From a virus (Duplodnaviria > Caudoviricetes), in IMG/VR virus record IMGVR_UViG_3300032087_000962, positions 1 through 24,677 of that record: DNA of 24,677 nucleotides; one strand, 5' to 3'. The notes beneath the pieces were generated by a model. It ran no database searches. It saw only the letters and a list, made by a program, of their open reading frames with translations, and was not told the DNA's origin. Within the stretch, counting starts at the first letter, position 1; each line of letters opens with the position of its first letter. The translations under genes and the position numbers were made by a program. Of the stretch, positions 1,343-19,327 are shown piece by piece.

Positions 1343-1556
1343 ATTTTTGTATTTGATTTTTCATTGCTTCAATAAATCTTTCTTCATCTGACTGCCTTGC
1401 TTTAATCGCAAAATGCATTAAGCCATCTAAATCGTGAAATAAAGAATCAGCATTCCACACAATATGATGCGCGTCATTTAGAATATGCACTTCACCATAT
1501 TCTTGCCATAATGTATGTGTTTCGTGAATATAAATTTCTGTTACTTTGTTTCCCAT
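1302..1556 (-). CDS. Hypothetical protein
   Basis: ORF track; co-oriented and overlapping its neighbours. Confidence 0.7.
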   Translation of the reverse strand: MGNKVTEIYIHETHTLWQEYGEVHILNDAHHIVWNADSLFHDLDGLMHFAIKARQSDEERFIEAMKNQIQKYEEAKNNSATKNS

Positions 1557-1789
1557 AATTGATTAAGTTCTTGTTTTAATTCTGTGTGTTTTTCTTGTAG
1601 CAAGTCGAAACTATCTTTGTACAGCTGTCTTTCAAGCTCTATCATATTTGTATGTTCTACAATATACTGAAATGACTTAATCAAGTTTTGTAACTCTACA
1701 TTGTTTGGTTTCTTTTCATACCATTTTGTCAAAACATCTAAAGCATAATTTGATGAATTTAAAAATATGTATGAATGTAGGTTATGCAT
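1541..1789 (-). CDS. Hypothetical protein with C-terminal coiled coil
   Basis: ORF track; co-oriented and overlapping its neighbours. Confidence 0.7.
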   Translation of the reverse strand: MHNLHSYIFLNSSNYALDVLTKWYEKKPNNVELQNLIKSFQYIVEHTNMIELERQLYKDSFDLLQEKHTELKQELNQLWETK

Positions 1790-2006
1790 ATTTTTTAATT
1801 ACATCTTGTTCAACGGCATCAAATACATCGTCTGTTAAATATTCTATCAAATTGAAGTGGTTATCAACCCCTATAAAATTAATCTGAACGTCAAACGGAA
1901 CGGGGGCATTAAAATAATCACCCCTATCTTGCGGTCTGTATGTAGCTTTATAGTAAAAGTCCACGTCACCGTTGTAGGTAAAAAAATCTTCTATTGCTTT
2001 CCACAT
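1782..2006 (-). CDS. Hypothetical protein
   Basis: ORF track; operon packing. Confidence 0.7.
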   Translation of the reverse strand: MWKAIEDFFTYNGDVDFYYKATYRPQDRGDYFNAPVPFDVQINFIGVDNHFNLIEYLTDDVFDAVEQDVIKKYA

Positions 2007-2008
2007 AA

Positions 2009-2218
2009 TTAATCTTCTTTTAGTTTGTTAGAAATTTCTCTGTAATCCACTTGTCGAACAAACGCTCTTGCGTAGTCTAAAGCTAGATGTGGAGATTGTT
2101 CTAAAATTTCTTCAACATAATCTTTACATTTTTCTGCATCCCAATCTTCTTGCATTCCGTCAAAAATTTCTAAGTTGATTCGCCAAGTTTCGTAGTTAGT
2201 CCATCCGTTAAATGACAT
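2009..2218 (-). CDS. Conserved phage early protein of the 'NGWTNYETW' type, function unknown
   Basis: N-terminal FNGWTNYETW and C-terminal VDYREI motifs, which I recognise as recurrent in phage small acidic proteins. Confidence 0.75.
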   Translation of the reverse strand: MSFNGWTNYETWRINLEIFDGMQEDWDAEKCKDYVEEILEQSPHLALDYARAFVRQVDYREISNKLKED

Positions 2219-2223
2219 AATAA

Positions 2224-2334
2224 TTAATTTAAAAGGTTAGATAAAATAGTTCCTAATTGATAACCTATATAAGCAAAGGCAAAGTATAGGAACGCTGATT
2301 GTAGTTTTTTGAATAGTTTTCCAAGTGTTTTCAT
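2224..2334 (-). CDS. Small membrane peptide, 36 aa (MKTLGKLFKKLQSAFLYFAFAYIGYQLGTILSNLLN)
   Basis: Translated by hand; fills the gap exactly; basic N-terminus followed by a hydrophobic helix. Confidence 0.6.
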   Translation of the reverse strand: MKTLGKLFKKLQSAFLYFAFAYIGYQLGTILSNLLN

Positions 2335-2336
2335 AA

Positions 2337-2564
2337 TTAACGCAGTTGTTTGCCACACAAAGGATAAAGCCTTGTGTAGTATGATTGACCTTTTTTAATT
2401 TTCTTTTTGTTGTCTAAAATAATATCTTCTGTAGCAACCGCATCAATGCGGCTATAATAGCCTATTTTATCTCTGTCGGCTTCTTTAATTATTTTAGTTC
2501 CGATAAGTTTCGTGTCGATAAGATATTCTACAAAATATCCGATATCTTTAAAAACTGGTTTCAT
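2337..2564 (-). CDS. Hypothetical protein, first gene of a putative early operon
   Basis: ORF track; lies directly downstream of a TATATTTG promoter with an A-rich leader AAACCAATCAAAT-ATG. Confidence 0.75.
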   Translation of the reverse strand: MKPVFKDIGYFVEYLIDTKLIGTKIIKEADRDKIGYYSRIDAVATEDIILDNKKKIKKGQSYYTRLYPLCGKQLR

Positions 2565-2583
2565 ATTTGATTGGTTTATGTTT

Positions 2584-3255: not shown

Positions 3256-3389
3256 TTTCTAAACACTTTTATATTGTCTAACTTTTCTTTTCTTTCTTTA
3301 CAACCGCAGTCATCACCCCATATCTTTTTTACGACCCAAGCAATGCCTGTAAACTTAAATATCTTCTCTAATAGCGTTCCAAGTTTCAT
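3252..3389 (-). CDS. Small protein, 45 aa, with DCGC motif (MKLGTLLEKIFKFTGIAWVVKKIWGDDCGCKERKEKLDNIKVFRK)
   Basis: Translated by hand; LG..EKI...TGI...DCGC.ERKEKL pattern that I recognise from Bacteroidota phages; ATGA overlap with the next gene. Confidence 0.75.
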   Translation of the reverse strand: MKLGTLLEKIFKFTGIAWVVKKIWGDDCGCKERKEKLDNIKVFRK

Positions 3390-3885
3390 AACTATCTTTT
3401 ATTTCGTTTTTAATTATTTTAATTGTATGACGAATAGATTCATATGATAAACATAATTCTCTAGACAATTGCTTCATACTTTTTTTTTCTAGCATTACTT
3501 CATTAAAAATGGTAGCGTGATAAATATCTTCTAAATCTTCAATGTTTTCATAATTTATTTTTTGTAAAGTATTATCATTAATCCACTTTGTTATGTACTG
3601 ACTTTTTAATGTGTCGGTTTCTATGTATTCTTCTTCTTCTATGTGTGGTATTTCTTCGGTAAAGTGAAACCGCTTTTCTTTTTTCTTTAAATCAAATACC
3701 ATATTCCTTAAAACTAAATAGACGAAATAGAAATTAATCTTTTCGCCTATCATAATGTCTTTTTGATAATTAGACATTTTTAAATAAAACTCTTGCACAA
3801 TGTCTTGCGCTGTATCTATATTTACATTAAATTTTAAAACATAATTAATCCAAAGATTATGATGTTTTGATAATAAATGAAGCAT
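3355..3885 (-). CDS. Phage-encoded sigma-70/ECF-like RNA polymerase sigma factor
   Basis: Region 2-like AQDIVQEFYLKM...YLVLRNMVFD..KK and region 4-like HTH KSMKQLSRELCLSYESIRHTIK; 176 aa, typical ECF size. Confidence 0.75.
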   Translation of the reverse strand: MLHLLSKHHNLWINYVLKFNVNIDTAQDIVQEFYLKMSNYQKDIMIGEKINFYFVYLVLRNMVFDLKKKEKRFHFTEEIPHIEEEEYIETDTLKSQYITKWINDNTLQKINYENIEDLEDIYHATIFNEVMLEKKSMKQLSRELCLSYESIRHTIKIIKNEIKDSYETWNAIREDI

Positions 3886-4028: not shown

Positions 4029-4955
4029 TTATGCTTTTCTTAAAAAGGTTTGTTGCTTTTTGTTTTGTAAGACTGTTTTTAAAATGTTTTGTCCATCTAT
4101 TTCAAAGCCTACGTTATTAATCATAGACTTTAATTTTATTGGTTCGTCTAATGGTGTTGGTCTACCACCGCTTTCGGTTTCTTTAACTTTTCTTATGTGT
4201 ATATGTGTTTGATTCCAATCGCTTGGGTGTTGAGTGTATCTATGTACTACCATAAAATCATCAGCACGATTAACAAACTTTGCCCCACCTTCAACATCAC
4301 CTGCATTTGGGGGTATAGGATAACCTCCATATTCGTGTCCTAAAAAATGTGTCATTCTAATTGCACCTGTATTAGCGTGGGTGTTAAGCCATAAACTAAT
4401 TTCGTTTCGCTTACAAAATTGCCTTAATTCTGTCATTGCTTGGTAATCGTAACTATGCCCGTCAATATTTTTAGACATTTCAGCGTCTTTTATTAAACTG
4501 TTATACGGATCAATTAACATACCTTGATAATCCCACGCAGCTTTGTACGCCTCTCCCAATTTAATTAAATCTTTATAACTATACAATTTTTCAGGACTAA
4601 TAAATTTAAAATAATTCTTAATAACCTTGACAGCATATTGATAACTGTCATCTCTTAGTTTATTTAAAGGTTCAGATAAAGTATATTCTATTAGTTTTCT
4701 TATAATTGAGTATGGTTCGTTTTCACTACTAAAAACAATCCATTTTATATTATGCCTTAATGAGTATAGCAACATCAAATAAAGTGCTACTGATGTTTTA
4801 CCGACATTGGCTTGACCTAATATTACATTAAAGTTTCCTTTCTTAAATCTAAAGTATTCGTCTATTTCGGGTATACCTAATTTATAACCTTCTCGAATTT
4901 CACCTTTTCTTATTTTTTCAAGGTGTTGTAATTGTTGTAAGTAATCTATTAACAT
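4029..4955 (-). CDS. DnaB/Twinkle-like SF4 replicative helicase (RecA-fold domain only)
   Basis: Walker A GQANVGKT, FSSEN, Walker B LIDPYN, LNTH, GGAKFVNRAD and HIRKVK motifs. Confidence 0.88.
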   Translation of the reverse strand: MLIDYLQQLQHLEKIRKGEIREGYKLGIPEIDEYFRFKKGNFNVILGQANVGKTSVALYLMLLYSLRHNIKWIVFSSENEPYSIIRKLIEYTLSEPLNKLRDDSYQYAVKVIKNYFKFISPEKLYSYKDLIKLGEAYKAAWDYQGMLIDPYNSLIKDAEMSKNIDGHSYDYQAMTELRQFCKRNEISLWLNTHANTGAIRMTHFLGHEYGGYPIPPNAGDVEGGAKFVNRADDFMVVHRYTQHPSDWNQTHIHIRKVKETESGGRPTPLDEPIKLKSMINNVGFEIDGQNILKTVLQNKKQQTFLRKA

Positions 4956-4962
4956 TGTTTGG

Positions 4963-4970
4963 CTAAGTTA
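4963..4970 (-). promoter_or_regulatory. Variant -7 promoter element (TAACTTAG) upstream of the helicase
   Basis: One mismatch to TAnnTTTG; sits between a terminator U-tract and the helicase ATG, 7 nt away. Confidence 0.45.
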
Positions 4971-4971
4971 T

Positions 4972-5002: not shown

Positions 5003-5308
5003 TTAAAATGGTAAGTCATCTTCTCTGTCAGGTTGCTGCGCTGCAGCGGTCAATTCTTCTTTTTGTTCTGCAGTAGTTATATTGCCATCTGTCCATATAA
5101 CCCTGCCATTACCAACATAAATACGGTCTTGTTTTGCTTCTCTTTCTTCTCTTGATTGTGAAACAATAACCGAAGCATTTTTGCCATATTGATTTGTTTG
5201 GTCATTGACATTAAGGGACAAATTAATATAAGTACCTTTTTTTCCTTTAATCATTTTTTCTTTTGGTAGCTTAGTTAAGTCTAAACTAAAATTTACAATT
5301 GCACTCAT
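5003..5308 (-). CDS. Single-stranded DNA-binding protein (phage type)
   Basis: Acidic C-terminal DDLPF tail, beta-rich core (GKKGTYINLSL, YVGNG), located between the annealing protein and the helicase. Confidence 0.7.
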   Translation of the reverse strand: MSAIVNFSLDLTKLPKEKMIKGKKGTYINLSLNVNDQTNQYGKNASVIVSQSREEREAKQDRIYVGNGRVIWTDGNITTAEQKEELTAAAQQPDREDDLPF

Positions 5309-5325
5309 TTTAAAATATTTAAAAA

Positions 5326-5439
5326 TTAATCTTCTTCTTTACTAAATGTTGCGTTTTCACGACAATCGCTGCATCGACCATAAATATCATCTAATTCACT
5401 ATATGGAGATGCGCCACAACAGTTGCTAATATAATTCAT
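5326..5439 (-). CDS. Small zinc-ribbon-like protein, 37 aa (MNYISNCCGASPYSELDDIYGRCSDCRENATFSKEED)
   Basis: Translated by hand; SNCCGA...GRCSDC motif; ATGA overlap with the upstream ORF. Confidence 0.75.
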   Translation of the reverse strand: MNYISNCCGASPYSELDDIYGRCSDCRENATFSKEED

Positions 5440-5579
5440 TCTTCTAATATATTTAGTTCTTTTAATCTAATCCAAGAATAACAGTCAGAAAGTGTTCCTA
5501 TAAATGCGGTTGTTTCAGAACTCTTACACTCGGTAATATAATAACCATTTTTAAAATAACGTACAGTATACTTATCCAT
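5436..5579 (-). CDS. Small hypothetical protein, 47 aa (MDKYTVRYFKNGYYITECKSSETTAFIGTLSDCYSWIRLKELNILEE)
   Basis: Translated by hand; overlaps both neighbours in typical coupled fashion. Confidence 0.65.
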   Translation of the reverse strand: MDKYTVRYFKNGYYITECKSSETTAFIGTLSDCYSWIRLKELNILEE

Positions 5580-5955
5580 TTTTAAAACTTTCTGATTCAT
5601 CTTCACCAAATACGCCCAACTGATAAAAGCCAGTCATCTTTAGTACTGCTCTTGACATTGCCCTTTTCTCTGCCATCTCGGCAATGTACCAACTTTGCGT
5701 ATTTCCGTTTTTAAAATCACCGTGTTTAGCAGATCCAAAAGTTTCTAAATAGGCATCGCCTTTTGTTACTGTGGCTTTAAATACTGCATAGTCAGGTTCA
5801 CATCTTACAACTTCATACTTAATGTTTAGTTGTTCTTGACCTAATATTTTTTCAATACCTTGTCTTGTGATAATTGTGTAGTGCTGATGCTTAAAAAAGT
5901 CAGCAGGTTGTAAATTGTACTTTTGATAAAGTTCTCTTAATTTAGTTTTGTCCAT
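5572..5955 (-). CDS. Putative single-strand annealing protein (Rad52/Sak/Red-beta-like fold)
   Basis: IITRQGIEKI and AEMAEKRAMSRAVLK...GVFGEDE motifs; position upstream of SSB. Confidence 0.55.
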   Translation of the reverse strand: MDKTKLRELYQKYNLQPADFFKHQHYTIITRQGIEKILGQEQLNIKYEVVRCEPDYAVFKATVTKGDAYLETFGSAKHGDFKNGNTQSWYIAEMAEKRAMSRAVLKMTGFYQLGVFGEDESESFKNG

Positions 5956-6142
5956 TTACTTCTAATTTGGCGGTTAAAAATTCATTTTCTTGTTCTAATT
6001 CTGTAATGCGTTTAGCCATAGCTTCAATACGAAGCATAGGAAACTTTAGGACATCATTTTTCAGTTCCTTTAGTTCGTTATACATTAAATAGTTTTCGGT
6101 GTGTTTGGCTAGGCCAAGCAGGTAAGTAAATCTTTTTTCCAT
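5942..6142 (-). CDS. Hypothetical coiled-coil protein (start revised from 6187 to ATG 6142, MEKRFTY...)
   Basis: The track's N-terminal extension overlaps a TATATTTG promoter; ATG 6142 has an A/T-rich leader. Confidence 0.7.
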   Translation of the reverse strand: MEKRFTYLLGLAKHTENYLMYNELKELKNDVLKFPMLRIEAMAKRITELEQENEFLTAKLEVNGQN

Positions 6143-6165
6143 AATAAAATTAATTGTTAGATATT

Positions 6166-6173
6166 CAAATATA
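6166..6173 (-). promoter_or_regulatory. Bacteroidota -7 promoter element (TATATTTG) for the recombination/SSB operon
   Basis: Exact TAnnTTTG 23 nt upstream of ATG 6142 and downstream of a terminator. Confidence 0.7.
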
Positions 6174-6205
6174 AAAATTTTTGTCAATAAAAAAAAATAT
6201 TATAT

Positions 6206-6234
6206 AAAAAAAGAGAGGACATTGCTGCCCTCCC
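6206..6234 (-). terminator. Rho-independent terminator
   Basis: Minus strand reads GGGAGGGCA-GCAA-TGTCCTCTC-T7: 9-bp stem with two G-U pairs and a GNRA loop. Confidence 0.88.
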
Positions 6235-6283
6235 TAAAACTTCTAACCAATCAAATTAATATGAAAAACTCATTTAATTAGGT
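6206..6283 (-). ncRNA. Candidate trans-acting antisense small RNA (~75 nt)
   Basis: Bounded by TATATTTG (6284-6291) and the terminator (6206-6234); contains UUUCAU-AUUA-AUUUGAUUGGUU, complementary to the leader and start codon of gene 2337-2564. Confidence 0.55.
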
Positions 6284-6291
6284 CAAATATA
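6284..6291 (-). promoter_or_regulatory. Bacteroidota -7 promoter element (TATATTTG) immediately after the NinG stop
   Basis: Exact TAnnTTTG; no plausible protein gene before the next terminator. Confidence 0.6.
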
Positions 6292-6292
6292 A

Positions 6293-6697
6293 CTAAAACT
6301 TTTCTTTTTCCAAAACTTTTAATCGATTTGTGTAATCTTCTATCATTTCTTCTATCTCAAAATCTGAAAATTTTACAGTTTCCCTTGATCTATATAATAA
6401 AACATCTGAATAACCTTCGCCATACTTTTCATCTATAAACTTTGAGAACAAATACTGCTGCCCTTGTTGCATTACATTACACCCATAACATTGGGGAAAT
6501 ACATTGTCCTCCGACCATCTAGTCGAGTAATGCTTTCTTGACATAAAATGTCCTGCTTGTATTTTATTGATAGGGTACTTTCGGTTGCAGGTTACACATT
6601 CAACAAAGTTGTTCCTTAAATACTTTGTACGAATATATTTTGAAAATACCCTATCTAATGCTACGATAAGATTCTTACGACTTTTCCTTTTTTTCAA
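6293..6697 (-). CDS. ninG: NinG/Rap-like HNH junction-resolving endonuclease
   Basis: LDRVFSKYIR, CVTC, AGHFMSR..YSTRWSEDNVFPQCYGCN motifs; TTG start in a TTGA overlap. Confidence 0.85.
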   Translation of the reverse strand: MKKRKSRKNLIVALDRVFSKYIRTKYLRNNFVECVTCNRKYPINKIQAGHFMSRKHYSTRWSEDNVFPQCYGCNVMQQGQQYLFSKFIDEKYGEGYSDVLLYRSRETVKFSDFEIEEMIEDYTNRLKVLEKEKF

Positions 6698-6846
6698 GGG
6701 ATAATTGTGTTGTCTATTTTACCGATTAGGTAACGAAGGTTTTCTTTGTCTACTTTTGTTTCTATGACTTCTTTGTAAGTATATAATTTAATGTCATAAA
6801 ATTCATCTGATCCTTCGTGTTGTTTTATTCTGATCTCTAATTTCAT
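6694..6846 (-). CDS. Small hypothetical protein, 50 aa (MKLEIRIKQHEGSDEFYDIKLYTYKEVIETKVDKENLRYLIGKIDNTIIP)
   Basis: Translated by hand; its TGA overlaps the NinG TTG start. Confidence 0.7.
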   Translation of the reverse strand: MKLEIRIKQHEGSDEFYDIKLYTYKEVIETKVDKENLRYLIGKIDNTIIP

Positions 6847-7110
6847 ATCTATACATCAAACCCTTTACCCTGCATACTATATATTTAGGATTTTAGGTGT
6901 ATTAAACACATTTTAGCAATTTATATTTCAAACGCATCCCTGCAAGTGCGTATGGCGTATTTATCAAACTTTCGTTCGTGCATTGACCGATTTGTTGGTT
7001 TGTGGAACATTGATCGGATTTACCATTCAATATAAAGAACTGTATTTAGCTACTTAATCTTTTCGCTAATCTTGACATTTGAGTAGGTCAAATCGGAGTA
7101 AACACCTGCT
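6847..7110 (-). ncRNA. Candidate structured non-coding RNA / long leader / replication-origin region
   Basis: Largest gap without a convincing ORF; begins right after a TATATTTG promoter; GAAA-capped hairpin and several helices. Confidence 0.4.
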
Positions 7111-7118
7111 CAAATATA
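7111..7118 (-). promoter_or_regulatory. Bacteroidota -7 promoter element (TATATTTG)
   Basis: Exact TAnnTTTG; 17-nt context identical to the 2584 promoter; lies at the late/early module boundary. Confidence 0.7.
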
Positions 7119-7129
7119 AAAAATAAAAT

Positions 7130-7261
7130 TTATCTTCCTTGACCTTTGTACTTTTTTTTGTACAATTTAGAAGATTTTATCTTTGAAGATTTGGTTTTTG
7201 CGTGTACGTTAGGTCTTTTAACCTTTTTTTTCTCAATCTTAACGCTTACAATCTTTGCCAC
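7130..7261 (-). CDS. Small highly basic protein, 43 aa, ending KKYKGQGR (MAKIVSVKIEKKKVKRPNVHAKTKSSKIKSSKLYKKKYKGQGR)
   Basis: Translated by hand from a GTG start; the C-terminal Y(R/K)GQG motif is recurrent in phage small basic proteins. Confidence 0.75.
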   Translation of the reverse strand: MAKIVSVKIEKKKVKRPNVHAKTKSSKIKSSKLYKKKYKGQGR

Positions 7262-7322
7262 AATAACCTAAACACACTTTATCTAAAGTGATGTATTTAA
7301 TAAATTTACAAATCAGTTTCAT
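7239..7322 (-). CDS. Cys-rich cationic peptide, 27 aa (MKLICKFIKYITLDKVCLGYCGKDCKR)
   Basis: ATG overlaps the holin TGA (ATGA coupling); fills the gap. Confidence 0.55.
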   Translation of the reverse strand: MKLICKFIKYITLDKVCLGYCGKDCKR

Positions 7323-10269: not shown

Positions 10270-12447
10270 TTACTCTATATTATAATTTTGTGCAGTAGCC
10301 ATTCTATTAAAACTACTCCAAGATGTTAAACATTCTAATTCGCTATCTGATAATGCTTCTGTAAAAGTAGATACCATTTTTGTTTTTCCAACGAAGTTAC
10401 CTGCGCCAGCAGCATTATCAAAATTTAATCTATCTAATGTGTTAGCTGAATATGTAGCACCGCTTGTATCTGAATAAACTTCCGTTCCGTTTATCCATAA
10501 AGCAAAATCATTAGTTTTATATTTTAAGGCTACTTTATTAAAATCAGAAGCTAATTGTGTTGAAATATATGTTGAGGATGTTGCTCCACCTACTAAAACA
10601 AAATAATAAATATAACCAGTTGTTATTCTTGTTCCAATAAATGTCCTATTATTAGTTGTGCCATCACTAATTGAAATTAATCTATAATCAGCAACATCTT
10701 CATTTTTAAATTCCGCATACAACACACCCTCAGAATCGTTAAACAAATCACTATTACCAGCGTTGTTACAAGTTTCTGCTGCACGAGTAACCGTTGAACC
10801 ATAGGTAGGTATGTAGGATGTTAGATACCCTGCTTCTATTTGTAATCCATAAATTTTTACATCATTACTTGTGGCAAAACTTGCCAATCTTGACATAGTA
10901 GAACTATTGGCTAAAGCAATAAATGGGACTATTGTTGTACTTGCGGTTGCCGTAATTGTTGTGCCTACACGATACCATCCGTTCCCATAATCTTCAATAA
11001 AAGAATCAACAGAACCAGAACTTGAACCAAGCACACCATTTTCTAAATCATAATTTTGATGAAGTACACCAAAAGCGCCAGAACCAGCAACAAATTGAAC
11101 ATAATTTAAAGAACCTTTTTTAGCAAAAAAACTAAAAGTATAACTTGTGCCAGATGTTGCACTTCCATAATTTCTGTAAATATAATGTGAAGTAGATGCC
11201 CCATTACCAGCTAAACTTGCAGCATTATCTACGCCTTCGGGTGATGTTGAATCATTATCTGTTATTGTAGCGTTGCTTTTAGTATAAATATCAAAATATT
11301 CACTATCTGTTACTAAATTAGTCCTACTTGGTTCTAACAAGAAATGACCATTACCACCTTCATAGTTTATTCTTGGTATGTCTTGTCTATCTGTTGTTTC
11401 TAAATAGTCTTTAGCATCTGATCCTTTTACTAATTGTGCGTCTTGTATGTAGATGTTTCCTGCGGTTGTATCAGGAACATCACCAACATAAATTGCAACT
11501 TGTGTTCCACTTCCATAATCAGCACTAAAAGAACATCTATACCATCCATTAGAATTAGGAATAGCCGAAATATTACTATCAATAACACCAGATGTTGATG
11601 ATGATATTGTACCTGACGATAAATCAAATAAAACATCTTCATCTGTATTTATCATTCTTAAATTAAAAGTTGATAAAGAACCTTGTTTTGCAAAAACAGA
11701 AAAAGTAACATTACCTTTTATACTAAATGTCTGTGCAATATTAGTAAAACCACTTGCAGGTTTAGTAAGCAACCAAGCATCATTTGAACCATCATAACCA
11801 ATTTGACCACCAGTTAAAGTTGTTCCATTGTTTTTTACCCAAGTAGTATCAAAAGTATTTGATTGCTGCACCAAGTTATAAGGTACATCTTCAATATACC
11901 CTTGTTCGTTTACCCTTGTAGCTGACGATGCACGAGCAAAGTCGAAATCTGCGCCAATAACTTCTTTTACCGATACATTGTCGATAGTAAATGAATAATC
12001 ACCAGTACCTGTATTTCTTTCAATAAATACACCATTTGAATTAGAATTAGCCACCCAAAAAATTTCAATATTTTGTAAAGTTTCATCTAATGTAACAACA
12101 CCATTCGTTGTAGTTAAACCACCAATATTAGAACCATTGTCCATAAATCTAACTTGCTTACCATTAGAACCTGATGAACCTTGTATATCTCCTTTAATAC
12201 GATATTTTCTACCGCTTGTGTATGTGGTTGATTGAGATATTTTGGCAAATGCACCACCCACAACTGTAACAGTTGCTTCGCCATTTGAAATGACCGCACT
12301 TGTTTTACTCCAATCACTATCAGTATCAAAACTACCATTAGTAACTAATTCACTACCTAAATTAACTACTGGCTTAACACTATGCAATAAACCTTCCGAA
12401 TAAGCGGTAGGTGTGGTAACTGTACTTGCTTTTGTTAGTAAACTCAT
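10270..12447 (-). CDS. Virion fibre/spike protein, multi-module paralogue of 9059-10267
   Basis: ELVTNGSFDTDSDW...IDNVSVKEV module, FDFARASSATRVN, two NGWYR modules, LLEPSRTN, LamG-like end. Confidence 0.75.
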   Translation of the reverse strand: MSLLTKASTVTTPTAYSEGLLHSVKPVVNLGSELVTNGSFDTDSDWSKTSAVISNGEATVTVVGGAFAKISQSTTYTSGRKYRIKGDIQGSSGSNGKQVRFMDNGSNIGGLTTTNGVVTLDETLQNIEIFWVANSNSNGVFIERNTGTGDYSFTIDNVSVKEVIGADFDFARASSATRVNEQGYIEDVPYNLVQQSNTFDTTWVKNNGTTLTGGQIGYDGSNDAWLLTKPASGFTNIAQTFSIKGNVTFSVFAKQGSLSTFNLRMINTDEDVLFDLSSGTISSSTSGVIDSNISAIPNSNGWYRCSFSADYGSGTQVAIYVGDVPDTTAGNIYIQDAQLVKGSDAKDYLETTDRQDIPRINYEGGNGHFLLEPSRTNLVTDSEYFDIYTKSNATITDNDSTSPEGVDNAASLAGNGASTSHYIYRNYGSATSGTSYTFSFFAKKGSLNYVQFVAGSGAFGVLHQNYDLENGVLGSSSGSVDSFIEDYGNGWYRVGTTITATASTTIVPFIALANSSTMSRLASFATSNDVKIYGLQIEAGYLTSYIPTYGSTVTRAAETCNNAGNSDLFNDSEGVLYAEFKNEDVADYRLISISDGTTNNRTFIGTRITTGYIYYFVLVGGATSSTYISTQLASDFNKVALKYKTNDFALWINGTEVYSDTSGATYSANTLDRLNFDNAAGAGNFVGKTKMVSTFTEALSDSELECLTSWSSFNRMATAQNYNIE

Positions 12448-19302: not shown

Positions 19303-19327
19303 ATAAAACGATTTTAATTTTAATTTG
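19303..19327 (-). promoter_or_regulatory. Putative late promoter copy 3 (CAAAT-N11-TCGTTTTAT)
   Basis: Occupies most of the 33-nt intergenic gap before the protease gene. Confidence 0.7.

Follow-up and report, generated by a model that had tools for sequence, protein, structure and literature searches.

A predicted 74-nt small RNA of an uncultured phage mirrors the start regions of several early genes of the same phage

Immediately downstream of the ninG gene of an uncultured phage (IMG/VR record IMGVR_UViG_3300032087_000962), a promoter, a short body and a terminator follow each other within about one hundred nucleotides, which raises the question whether this cassette encodes an RNA of its own and which mRNAs such an RNA would address. 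The preliminary description had proposed a small RNA antisense to the start-codon regions of early genes of the same phage. The record is a whole virus sequence of 24,677 bases with 33% G+C and an estimated completeness of 75%, and the window in the following means this entire stretch. The recognisable genes are encoded by the minus strand, with genes for tail, head and lysis functions from 24.6 kb to 7.3 kb and then ninG, and small and replication genes are arranged downstream of ninG from 6142 to 91. We infer that the block 3' of the cassette is the early gene class, because it lies behind host-type promoters (6173 and 2591) and contains helicase and exonuclease genes. The sole cultured relatives that we found are the Nonlabens phages P12024S and P12024L with a capsid protein identity of 35%, and no cassette was seen by eye in positions 11000-11400 of P12024S. 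Based on this kinship and on the promoter type, the host is probably a Flavobacteria-type bacterium. The phage family is apparently lytic, as tyrosine integrase, resolvase and HTH_3 repressor (PF00589, PF00239 and PF01381) were each absent from five of five near-complete relatives. Furthermore, scans of 28 and 17 window proteins did not reveal a member of the antirepressor family, and prophage relatives of NinG in bacterial genomes were restricted to four loci with 27-36% identity.

The cassette consists of the following parts:

6293..6697, minus strand: ninG/Rap junction endonuclease gene, the upstream landmark (PF05766, E 2.7e-13; phrog_5034, E 6e-28)
6311..6314, minus strand: -33 promoter element TTTG, within the 3' end of ninG and 19 nt from the -7 element
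6284..6291, minus strand: -7 promoter element TATATTTG of the host housekeeping sigma type, assigned by sequence, 1 base past the ninG stop
6206..6279, minus strand: predicted 74-nt small RNA, with +1 set five bases past the -7 element
6242..6268, minus strand: antisense segment, mirror image of a start region including the AUG (from sequence and unpaired probabilities)
6206..6235, minus strand: intrinsic terminator with a 10-pair stem and GCAA loop (stem-loop 6235-6212) and a U run to 6206

The promoter at 6284-6291 and the GNRA-capped terminator had already been recognised in the preliminary description and both are confirmed, and the -33 element at 6314-6311 is an addition. Bacteroidota promoters follow a -33/-7 consensus with a distance of 4-5 nt between the -7 element and the transcription start, as described in PMC6847099. 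This spacing, together with the loci of the Bacteroides FopS RNAs, whose 5' end is the fifth base past the -7 element, is the basis for the predicted +1 at 6279. A TTG at 19-nt spacing, which doubles as a Leu codon of ninG, is present in 12 of 12 close-clade cassettes with a -7 site. In the centroid fold of the predicted RNA, pairs are confined to the terminator, and judged by unpaired probabilities the RNA is most open in its run of U residues and in the GGUUA seed at about 6243-6249. The window contains just two copies of the 8-mer AACCAATC, one within the cassette and the other in the 2337-2564 leader. As no other terminator with a clear U run is located on the minus strand between 15490 and 6235, the cassette terminator likely also ends ninG and late transcripts. 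The earlier view that the cassette holds no plausible protein was borne out: a 5-codon frame in the RNA body is not conserved, and an ATG is present on the sense strand in 10 of 30 cassettes with unrelated peptides. A coding role was rejected for either strand, since peptide conservation is absent on both. One RNA run (share 0.06) yielded 16 contigs at a depth of about 1-2, which are uninformative on start, end and strand.

To define how common the cassette is, 80 NinG relatives from viral contigs were compared. A terminator is found at most 170 nt past the ninG stop in 62 of them and is missing in 18. A promoter-like site 25-100 nt before the hairpin is present in 31 of 44 distinct cassettes, compared with 976 of 7988 background windows, and absent from the other 13. 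Within the close clade, promoter and terminator are kept and the body varies. In two relatives (L003:2853-2880 and L009:1968-1996) a hairpin takes the place of the RNA's 5' part; its stems differ by paired changes, and the 3' seed is identical to that of the window. Look-alike GATTGGTT cassettes also occur in more distant phages, where a pattern scan returned 43 stretches, many of them chance matches or terminatorless. Phages with promoter, body and terminator in this arrangement are L081, L084, L088, L095, L097, L108, L112-L114, L120, L105 and L099; several of the distant phages have a G+C content of about 45%, and few of their own leaders match. The inspected look-alike phages seldom carry the address in their own leaders, and self-targeting is therefore a sequence-based statement about the NinG-linked family only.

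Further elements were noticed in the vicinity and among the late genes. On the minus strand (7118-6847), about 270 nt of higher G+C content, with no frame longer than 48 codons, lie behind a host-type promoter, TATATTTG at 7118. The stretch is 91-95% conserved in L003, L004 and L009, and in L005, L007, L010, L011, L013 and L016 its place is taken by about 300 nt of unrelated sequence that is just as well conserved. No Rfam match was obtained for 7118-6847, which we regard as a candidate for a structured non-coding RNA or an origin. The motif CGTT(T/A)TA precedes the ATG of several late genes (protease, scaffold and a 110-aa gene) by about 5-20 nt, with minus-strand sites at 19310, 17775, 15462 and 596 of the window and also in G001, G002, G004 and G005. 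The motif, which recurs in relatives, is a candidate late promoter and is perhaps read with the 176-aa protein of gene 3355-3885, which had no Pfam or PHROG match and whose likeness to sigma factors is our impression.

Which mRNAs could be addressed was analysed by pairing the body with all start regions of the window. With 500 dinucleotide shuffles of the body as control, 9 of 19 early start regions reached p<0.02 compared with 0 of 24 others, and the best energy over all 43 regions, one of which was misplaced by 2 nt from the start codon, was reached by 2 of 500 shuffles. Counting the opening cost of both RNAs, the top 8 of 42 start regions were all early (2218, 5955, 2006, 6142, 4955, 1556, 3885 and 2564, named after the first base of the gene), with a chance of 6e-4. 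The net pairing energies are modest (-8 to -14 kcal/mol), and by raw duplex energy on both strands two windows inside late coding sequences slightly beat every start region. The predicted targets are:

6135..6161, minus strand: 19-nt leader and first codons of gene 5942-6142 (p 0.010; -9.8 kcal/mol net)
5963..5980, minus strand: start region of gene 5572-5955 (p 0.004; -11.3 kcal/mol net)
4947..4971, minus strand: start region of the DnaB-like helicase gene 4029-4955 (p 0.014; -9.8 kcal/mol net)
2559..2576, minus strand: 15-nt leader and AUG of gene 2337-2564 (p 0.002; -7.8 kcal/mol net)
2223..2241, minus strand: start region of gene 2009-2218 (0 of 500 shuffles; -14.0 kcal/mol net, the best of the window)
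2004..2034, minus strand: start region of gene 1782-2006 (p 0.002; -10.0 kcal/mol net)
1548..1570, minus strand: start region of gene 1302-1556, a weaker target (p 0.016; -8.8 kcal/mol net)

The leader of gene 5942-6142 lies behind the early promoter 6173-6166 and that of gene 2337-2564 behind the early promoter 2591-2584, gene 5572-5955 (127 aa) is an internal gene without its own promoter, and the helicase gene is located behind a terminator at 4997-4981. The latter, on the minus strand between the ssb-like gene and the helicase gene, is the second strong terminator observed, and a weak promoter-like TAACTTAG is located immediately upstream of the helicase start. The individual matches reported previously are all present, namely 12+6 pairs with a 4-nt bulge to the leader of gene 2337-2564, 7+8 pairs to gene 2009-2218 and the match with equal spacing to gene 5942-6142. 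The leader of gene 2337-2564, taken as the strongest partner at that time, has to cede this place to the 2218 leader, and the list of three leaders holds for its members but is incomplete, as 5955, 2006, 4955 and 1556 score too.

If the RNA acts on these leaders, both partners are expected to change together among relatives. For this comparison, the 40 nt before each hairpin were taken as body and grouped into 23 families including the window, and genes were called by simple ORF tiling that was blind to the RNA; L044 was left out of the resulting 22-family test as it has two downstream genes. Own bodies paired with own starts at a top-four mean of -15.4 kcal/mol compared with -13.4 kcal/mol for foreign bodies, a difference reached in 0 of 100000 permutations, although such permutation values overstate independence in families related by descent. 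The own body ranked first in just 7 of 22 families and among the top three in 11. Within start regions, 109 of 11808 positions carry a perfect antisense 9-mer, compared with 105 of 111349 positions elsewhere; per kb of start region, the values are 9.23 for own bodies versus 2.75 for foreign, 1.77 for shuffled and 0.59 for same-sense sequences. At least nine contiguous pairs were possible at 26 of 193 early starts, but at only 4 of 127 upstream late starts. The matches peak at -20 to -5 of the starts, which is the region that sets initiation in Flavobacterium, where adenines at -3, -6, -12 and -13 are the determinants according to PMC6847099.

The orthologous helicase start allows the same gene to be compared across 18 of the 22 families, the other four having no usable helicase start. 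Here, own bodies form 7.8 contiguous pairs versus 5.7 for foreign ones (0 of 20000 permutations). The helicase leaders, 0.8-2.2 kb away from the cassette, carry different words in each branch of the helicase tree, and each is mirrored in the own RNA, with match lengths of 19 nt in L066, 14 in L035, 11 in L063 and L067 and 8 in L026 and L017; the contiguous match of the window's own helicase is short (6). For the 127-aa gene, pairing energies of the orthologues co-vary with the RNA (n=7; 23 of 20000 permutations), co-variation is marginal for the starts of the 176-aa gene and of the first gene, and the starts of the ssb and exonuclease genes and of the 149-aa and 65-aa genes show none.

A further search, this time with the helicase, yielded 21 loci with ninG and, after L205 was dropped as a known family, four new families that served as a held-out set. 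In these families, own antisense 9-mers occupy 44 of 2048 start positions, equal to 21.5 per kb, versus 3.25 for foreign, 2.2 for shuffled and 1.46 for same-sense controls, and at least nine pairs occur at 13 of 64 early starts compared with 0 of 13 late starts. A single C/T switch distinguishes L227 from L229 and is present in the RNA and in several leaders alike. In contrast to this general prediction, the prediction for the helicase leader failed: own bodies did no better than foreign ones in 10 of 11 distinct held-out pairs, and several of the helicase genes concerned appear to lack a leader. The helicase leader was therefore rejected as a universal target, and the failed and the passed prediction together indicate that the target set shifts between lineages while the principle stays. 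In L212, L213, L218, L220-L226, L228 and L231 the helicase ATG is located about 4 bases past a promoter-like element, which suggests a leaderless helicase mRNA in this clade. Relatives thus also carry the promoter-antisense-terminator unit, and in the tests of 22 and of four held-out families it changes along with the early leaders of the same phage; complementarity exceeds shuffled controls in the window as well as in the 9-mer test of the relatives. Both tests had been proposed in the preliminary description. On this sequence evidence, the cassette is a real, conserved and co-evolving RNA-leader system.

Several other explanations have to be considered. The RNA might be real but mainly directed against the host, either by mimicking FopS and thereby lowering host outer-membrane or secreted proteins, or by titrating a host RNA-binding protein, and the match to phage leaders would then be a by-product of the start-region style shared by phage and host. 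FopS represses SusC transporter mRNAs and was found in one phage, as stated in PMC11697453. In the body of the window's RNA, 28 of 40 aligned columns are identical to a FopS copy, a value that 7 of 2000 shuffles equalled, and the Rfam FopS model (RF04319) aligns to 6203-6271 over its full length with 30.6 bits (E 1.3e-4), below the cut-off of 56. A chromosomal pair of like build in G298 (L142 and L147) and the distant look-alike phage cassettes without many own targets point in the same direction. However, this likeness fades in relatives, with 0 of 10 related phage records above the FopS cut-off and 17.8 bits at best, and seed scores drop from 41 to 18 across the 23 families. Late genes need the host start style equally, yet they are without a match. 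The exact 12-base address before an ATG gave 43 matches in 36 of 150 Bacteroidia genomes versus 18 for the reversed pattern, in a set from which one unpublished genome was left out and which does not include the true host genome, and 2 of 24 inspected chromosomal matches look like gene starts; the earlier suggestion that similar host leaders are targets finds little support here. The window-type cassette pattern was also considered as a common host gene and rejected, as it is not enriched (7 of 401 Bacteroidia genomes versus 4 reversed-control matches). We therefore consider a mainly host-directed RNA unlikely.

It is also quite improbable that the element is simply the 3' end of ninG or late transcripts, that is a long mRNA, a processed 3' fragment or a cis-acting read-through hairpin, in which case the switch would be tied to late transcription. 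The 13 cassettes without a promoter-like site, several of them with stop codons 21-36 nt before the hairpin, would fit such a 3' end, as would the lack of a clear terminator between the late genes and the cassette terminator and the 3' UTR-derived FopS-14 (PMC11697453). Against this stands the full -33/-7 promoter at fixed spacing in the window phage and its clade. Furthermore, a purely cis-acting fold is excluded, because the best targets are 0.25-4.2 kb away and some are located behind their own promoter or past a terminator.

We regard it as very unlikely that the shared word is a DNA site, such as an operator of a phage protein, or the result of local inverted copying, and that RNA pairing is absent. 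Three matched leaders are located directly behind promoters and inverted copying would give rise to co-variation too, but the best matches belong to the promoterless internal genes 2218, 5955 and 2006, the cassette copy is antisense (0.59 same-sense versus 9.23 per kb), matches cross the AUG and peak at -20 to -5, and an HTH_3 protein is absent from all five relatives. The mismatches lean to G-U as well. Among transition mismatches in own pairs, 322 of 441 (73%) are compatible with G-U, compared with 66% in shuffles (p 0.002); the share in foreign pairs is 69% (own versus foreign p 0.09, with symmetric scoring), and a stricter cut gave 140 of 180 (p 0.002 versus shuffles and 0.047 versus foreign). 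This bias leans toward RNA pairing without being strong. Hardly credible, and largely refuted, is a body that represents the start region of a small opposite-strand gene or plain U-rich sequence pairing with any A-rich leader: the plus strand can be read as a leader with ATG and six codons, leaders in Bacteroidota are rich in A, and start regions show an about threefold enrichment for foreign bodies as well, but the opposite-strand ATG is absent in 13 of 23 families, with unrelated frames of 3-26 codons in the others, the opposite-strand promoter is absent in 21 of 23, and the values for own bodies are three to ten times those for foreign and shuffled bodies.

The reading that we prefer, and consider probable, is that the cassette encodes a stable 74-nt RNA which pairs in trans with several early start regions of the same phage and dampens early translation. 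Beyond the observed anatomy, the complementarity above chance, its bias for early genes and its co-variation across relatives, we infer that the RNA would repress these genes and determine the timing of their expression. The host sigma factor and polymerase would transcribe the RNA from phage entry on, the open GGUUA seed would nucleate on UAACC-type leader words, and pairing would extend across the A-rich stretch and the AUG used by Bacteroidota ribosomes, so that ribosomes would be kept off some early mRNAs by pairing over -20 to +6. The RNA would accumulate with time, genome copy number and probably with the ninG and late mRNAs that appear to share its terminator; early translation would be turned down, and late genes without an address would escape. 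In an apparently lytic phage, this would provide a delayed brake for the change from early to late expression. The delay is assumed rather than read from the sequence, because the RNA and the early genes have promoters of one type. As a side effect, a second phage bearing the same address could be excluded.

How lytic phages shut off early genes without a translational repressor is, to our knowledge, largely an open question, and most phage antisense RNAs described so far guard a single gene within a lysis-lysogeny circuit. Here, one 74-base RNA would address a gene class, and natural compensatory variants are available in about 26 sequence families. We tentatively extend this to a more general idea, which we hold to be possible but somewhat doubtful: a lytic Bacteroidota phage family might shut off its early class with one small RNA and a leader address, and this pair, drifting between lineages, might serve as an identity code made of RNA alone, with no repressor, by which superinfecting kin bearing an identical address are excluded. 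If true, ribosomes that ignore Shine-Dalgarno sequences leave leaders free for private addresses, the FopS mechanism would be extended from host metabolism to phage timing, and small orthogonal RNA-leader pairs would become available for gene control in Bacteroidota. The RNA-leader pairs are directly testable with existing Flavobacterium reporters.

Among known RNAs, no Rfam family reached its cut-off in the window or in six related loci. An all-family Rfam scan with E up to 10 returned two chance matches only and missed FopS, which was found by the single-family search. In the latter, the cassette is the best match in the window and the only copy, and six of six FopS loci used as positive control scored 59.7-80.8 bits. 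Like the cassette, FopS (RF04319; together with GibS) consists of a canonical sigma-ABfr promoter, an open U-rich 5' part and a terminator, and its length of 65-70 nt is close to the 74 nt predicted here (PMC11697453 for FopS). FopS pairs over many mRNA start regions and blocks initiation, the same mode that we propose for the phage RNA. For FopS RNAs, the block of initiation by pairing next to the start codon was demonstrated with compensatory rescue, and FopS-10, which is of like build, blocks translation by pairing over the start region (PMC11697453). The 5' words of FopS and the phage RNA are very similar. Nevertheless, both differ in several points: FopS comprises 12-15 chromosomal paralogues in Bacteroidaceae with a conserved seed and targets SusC transporters (PMC11697453), whereas the phage RNA is present in single copy, its seed changes between lineages and its predicted targets are early genes of the phage itself. 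Convergence on a shared start-region consensus would give the same likeness of the R1' seed, so that homology and convergence are indistinguishable. We regard the phage RNA as working like FopS without being a member. The expectation of an undescribed phage RNA switch therefore does not hold entirely, as FopS RNAs of Bacteroides share the build and act on host genes by the mechanism proposed here (PMC11697453), while no Bacteroidota phage RNA directed at early genes of the same phage turned up in the literature covered, which excludes subscription papers and preprint supplements. In G298:C31, the chromosomal units L142 and L147 consist of promoter, FopS-like body and terminator and score below the Rfam cut-off; FopS-like RNAs may extend beyond Bacteroidaceae.

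The genes of sar and OOP overlap their targets on the opposite strand, whereas the phage RNA shares the strand of its predicted targets and is encoded at a distance from them. According to PMC12197685, sar of P22 and OOP of lambda, the latter listed as cis-acting, resemble the phage RNA as short promoter-to-terminator units that repress a phage gene by pairing, but each of them has one target and belongs to a lysis-lysogeny circuit. The phage RNA would instead address many early genes.

With respect to self-targeting, the nearest known case is the c4 RNA of P1 and P7, beside which the CI RNA of P4 is a kindred system. The C4 covariance model had no match in 5300-7300 at E up to 10, and the phage RNA is not a member of this family. 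As described in PMC12197685, c4 confers lysogenic immunity via one antirepressor mRNA and requires its folded structure, whereas the body of the phage RNA is mostly open and integrase and repressor were not found in the relatives searched. On the other hand, c4 is a 77-nt RNA that acts in trans on the ribosome-binding region of an mRNA of its own phage, and sequence changes between relatives define its specificity (heteroimmunity; PMC12197685). Both traits, trans action on own ribosome-binding regions and lineage-specific pairing, appear in the phage RNA at the level of sequence.
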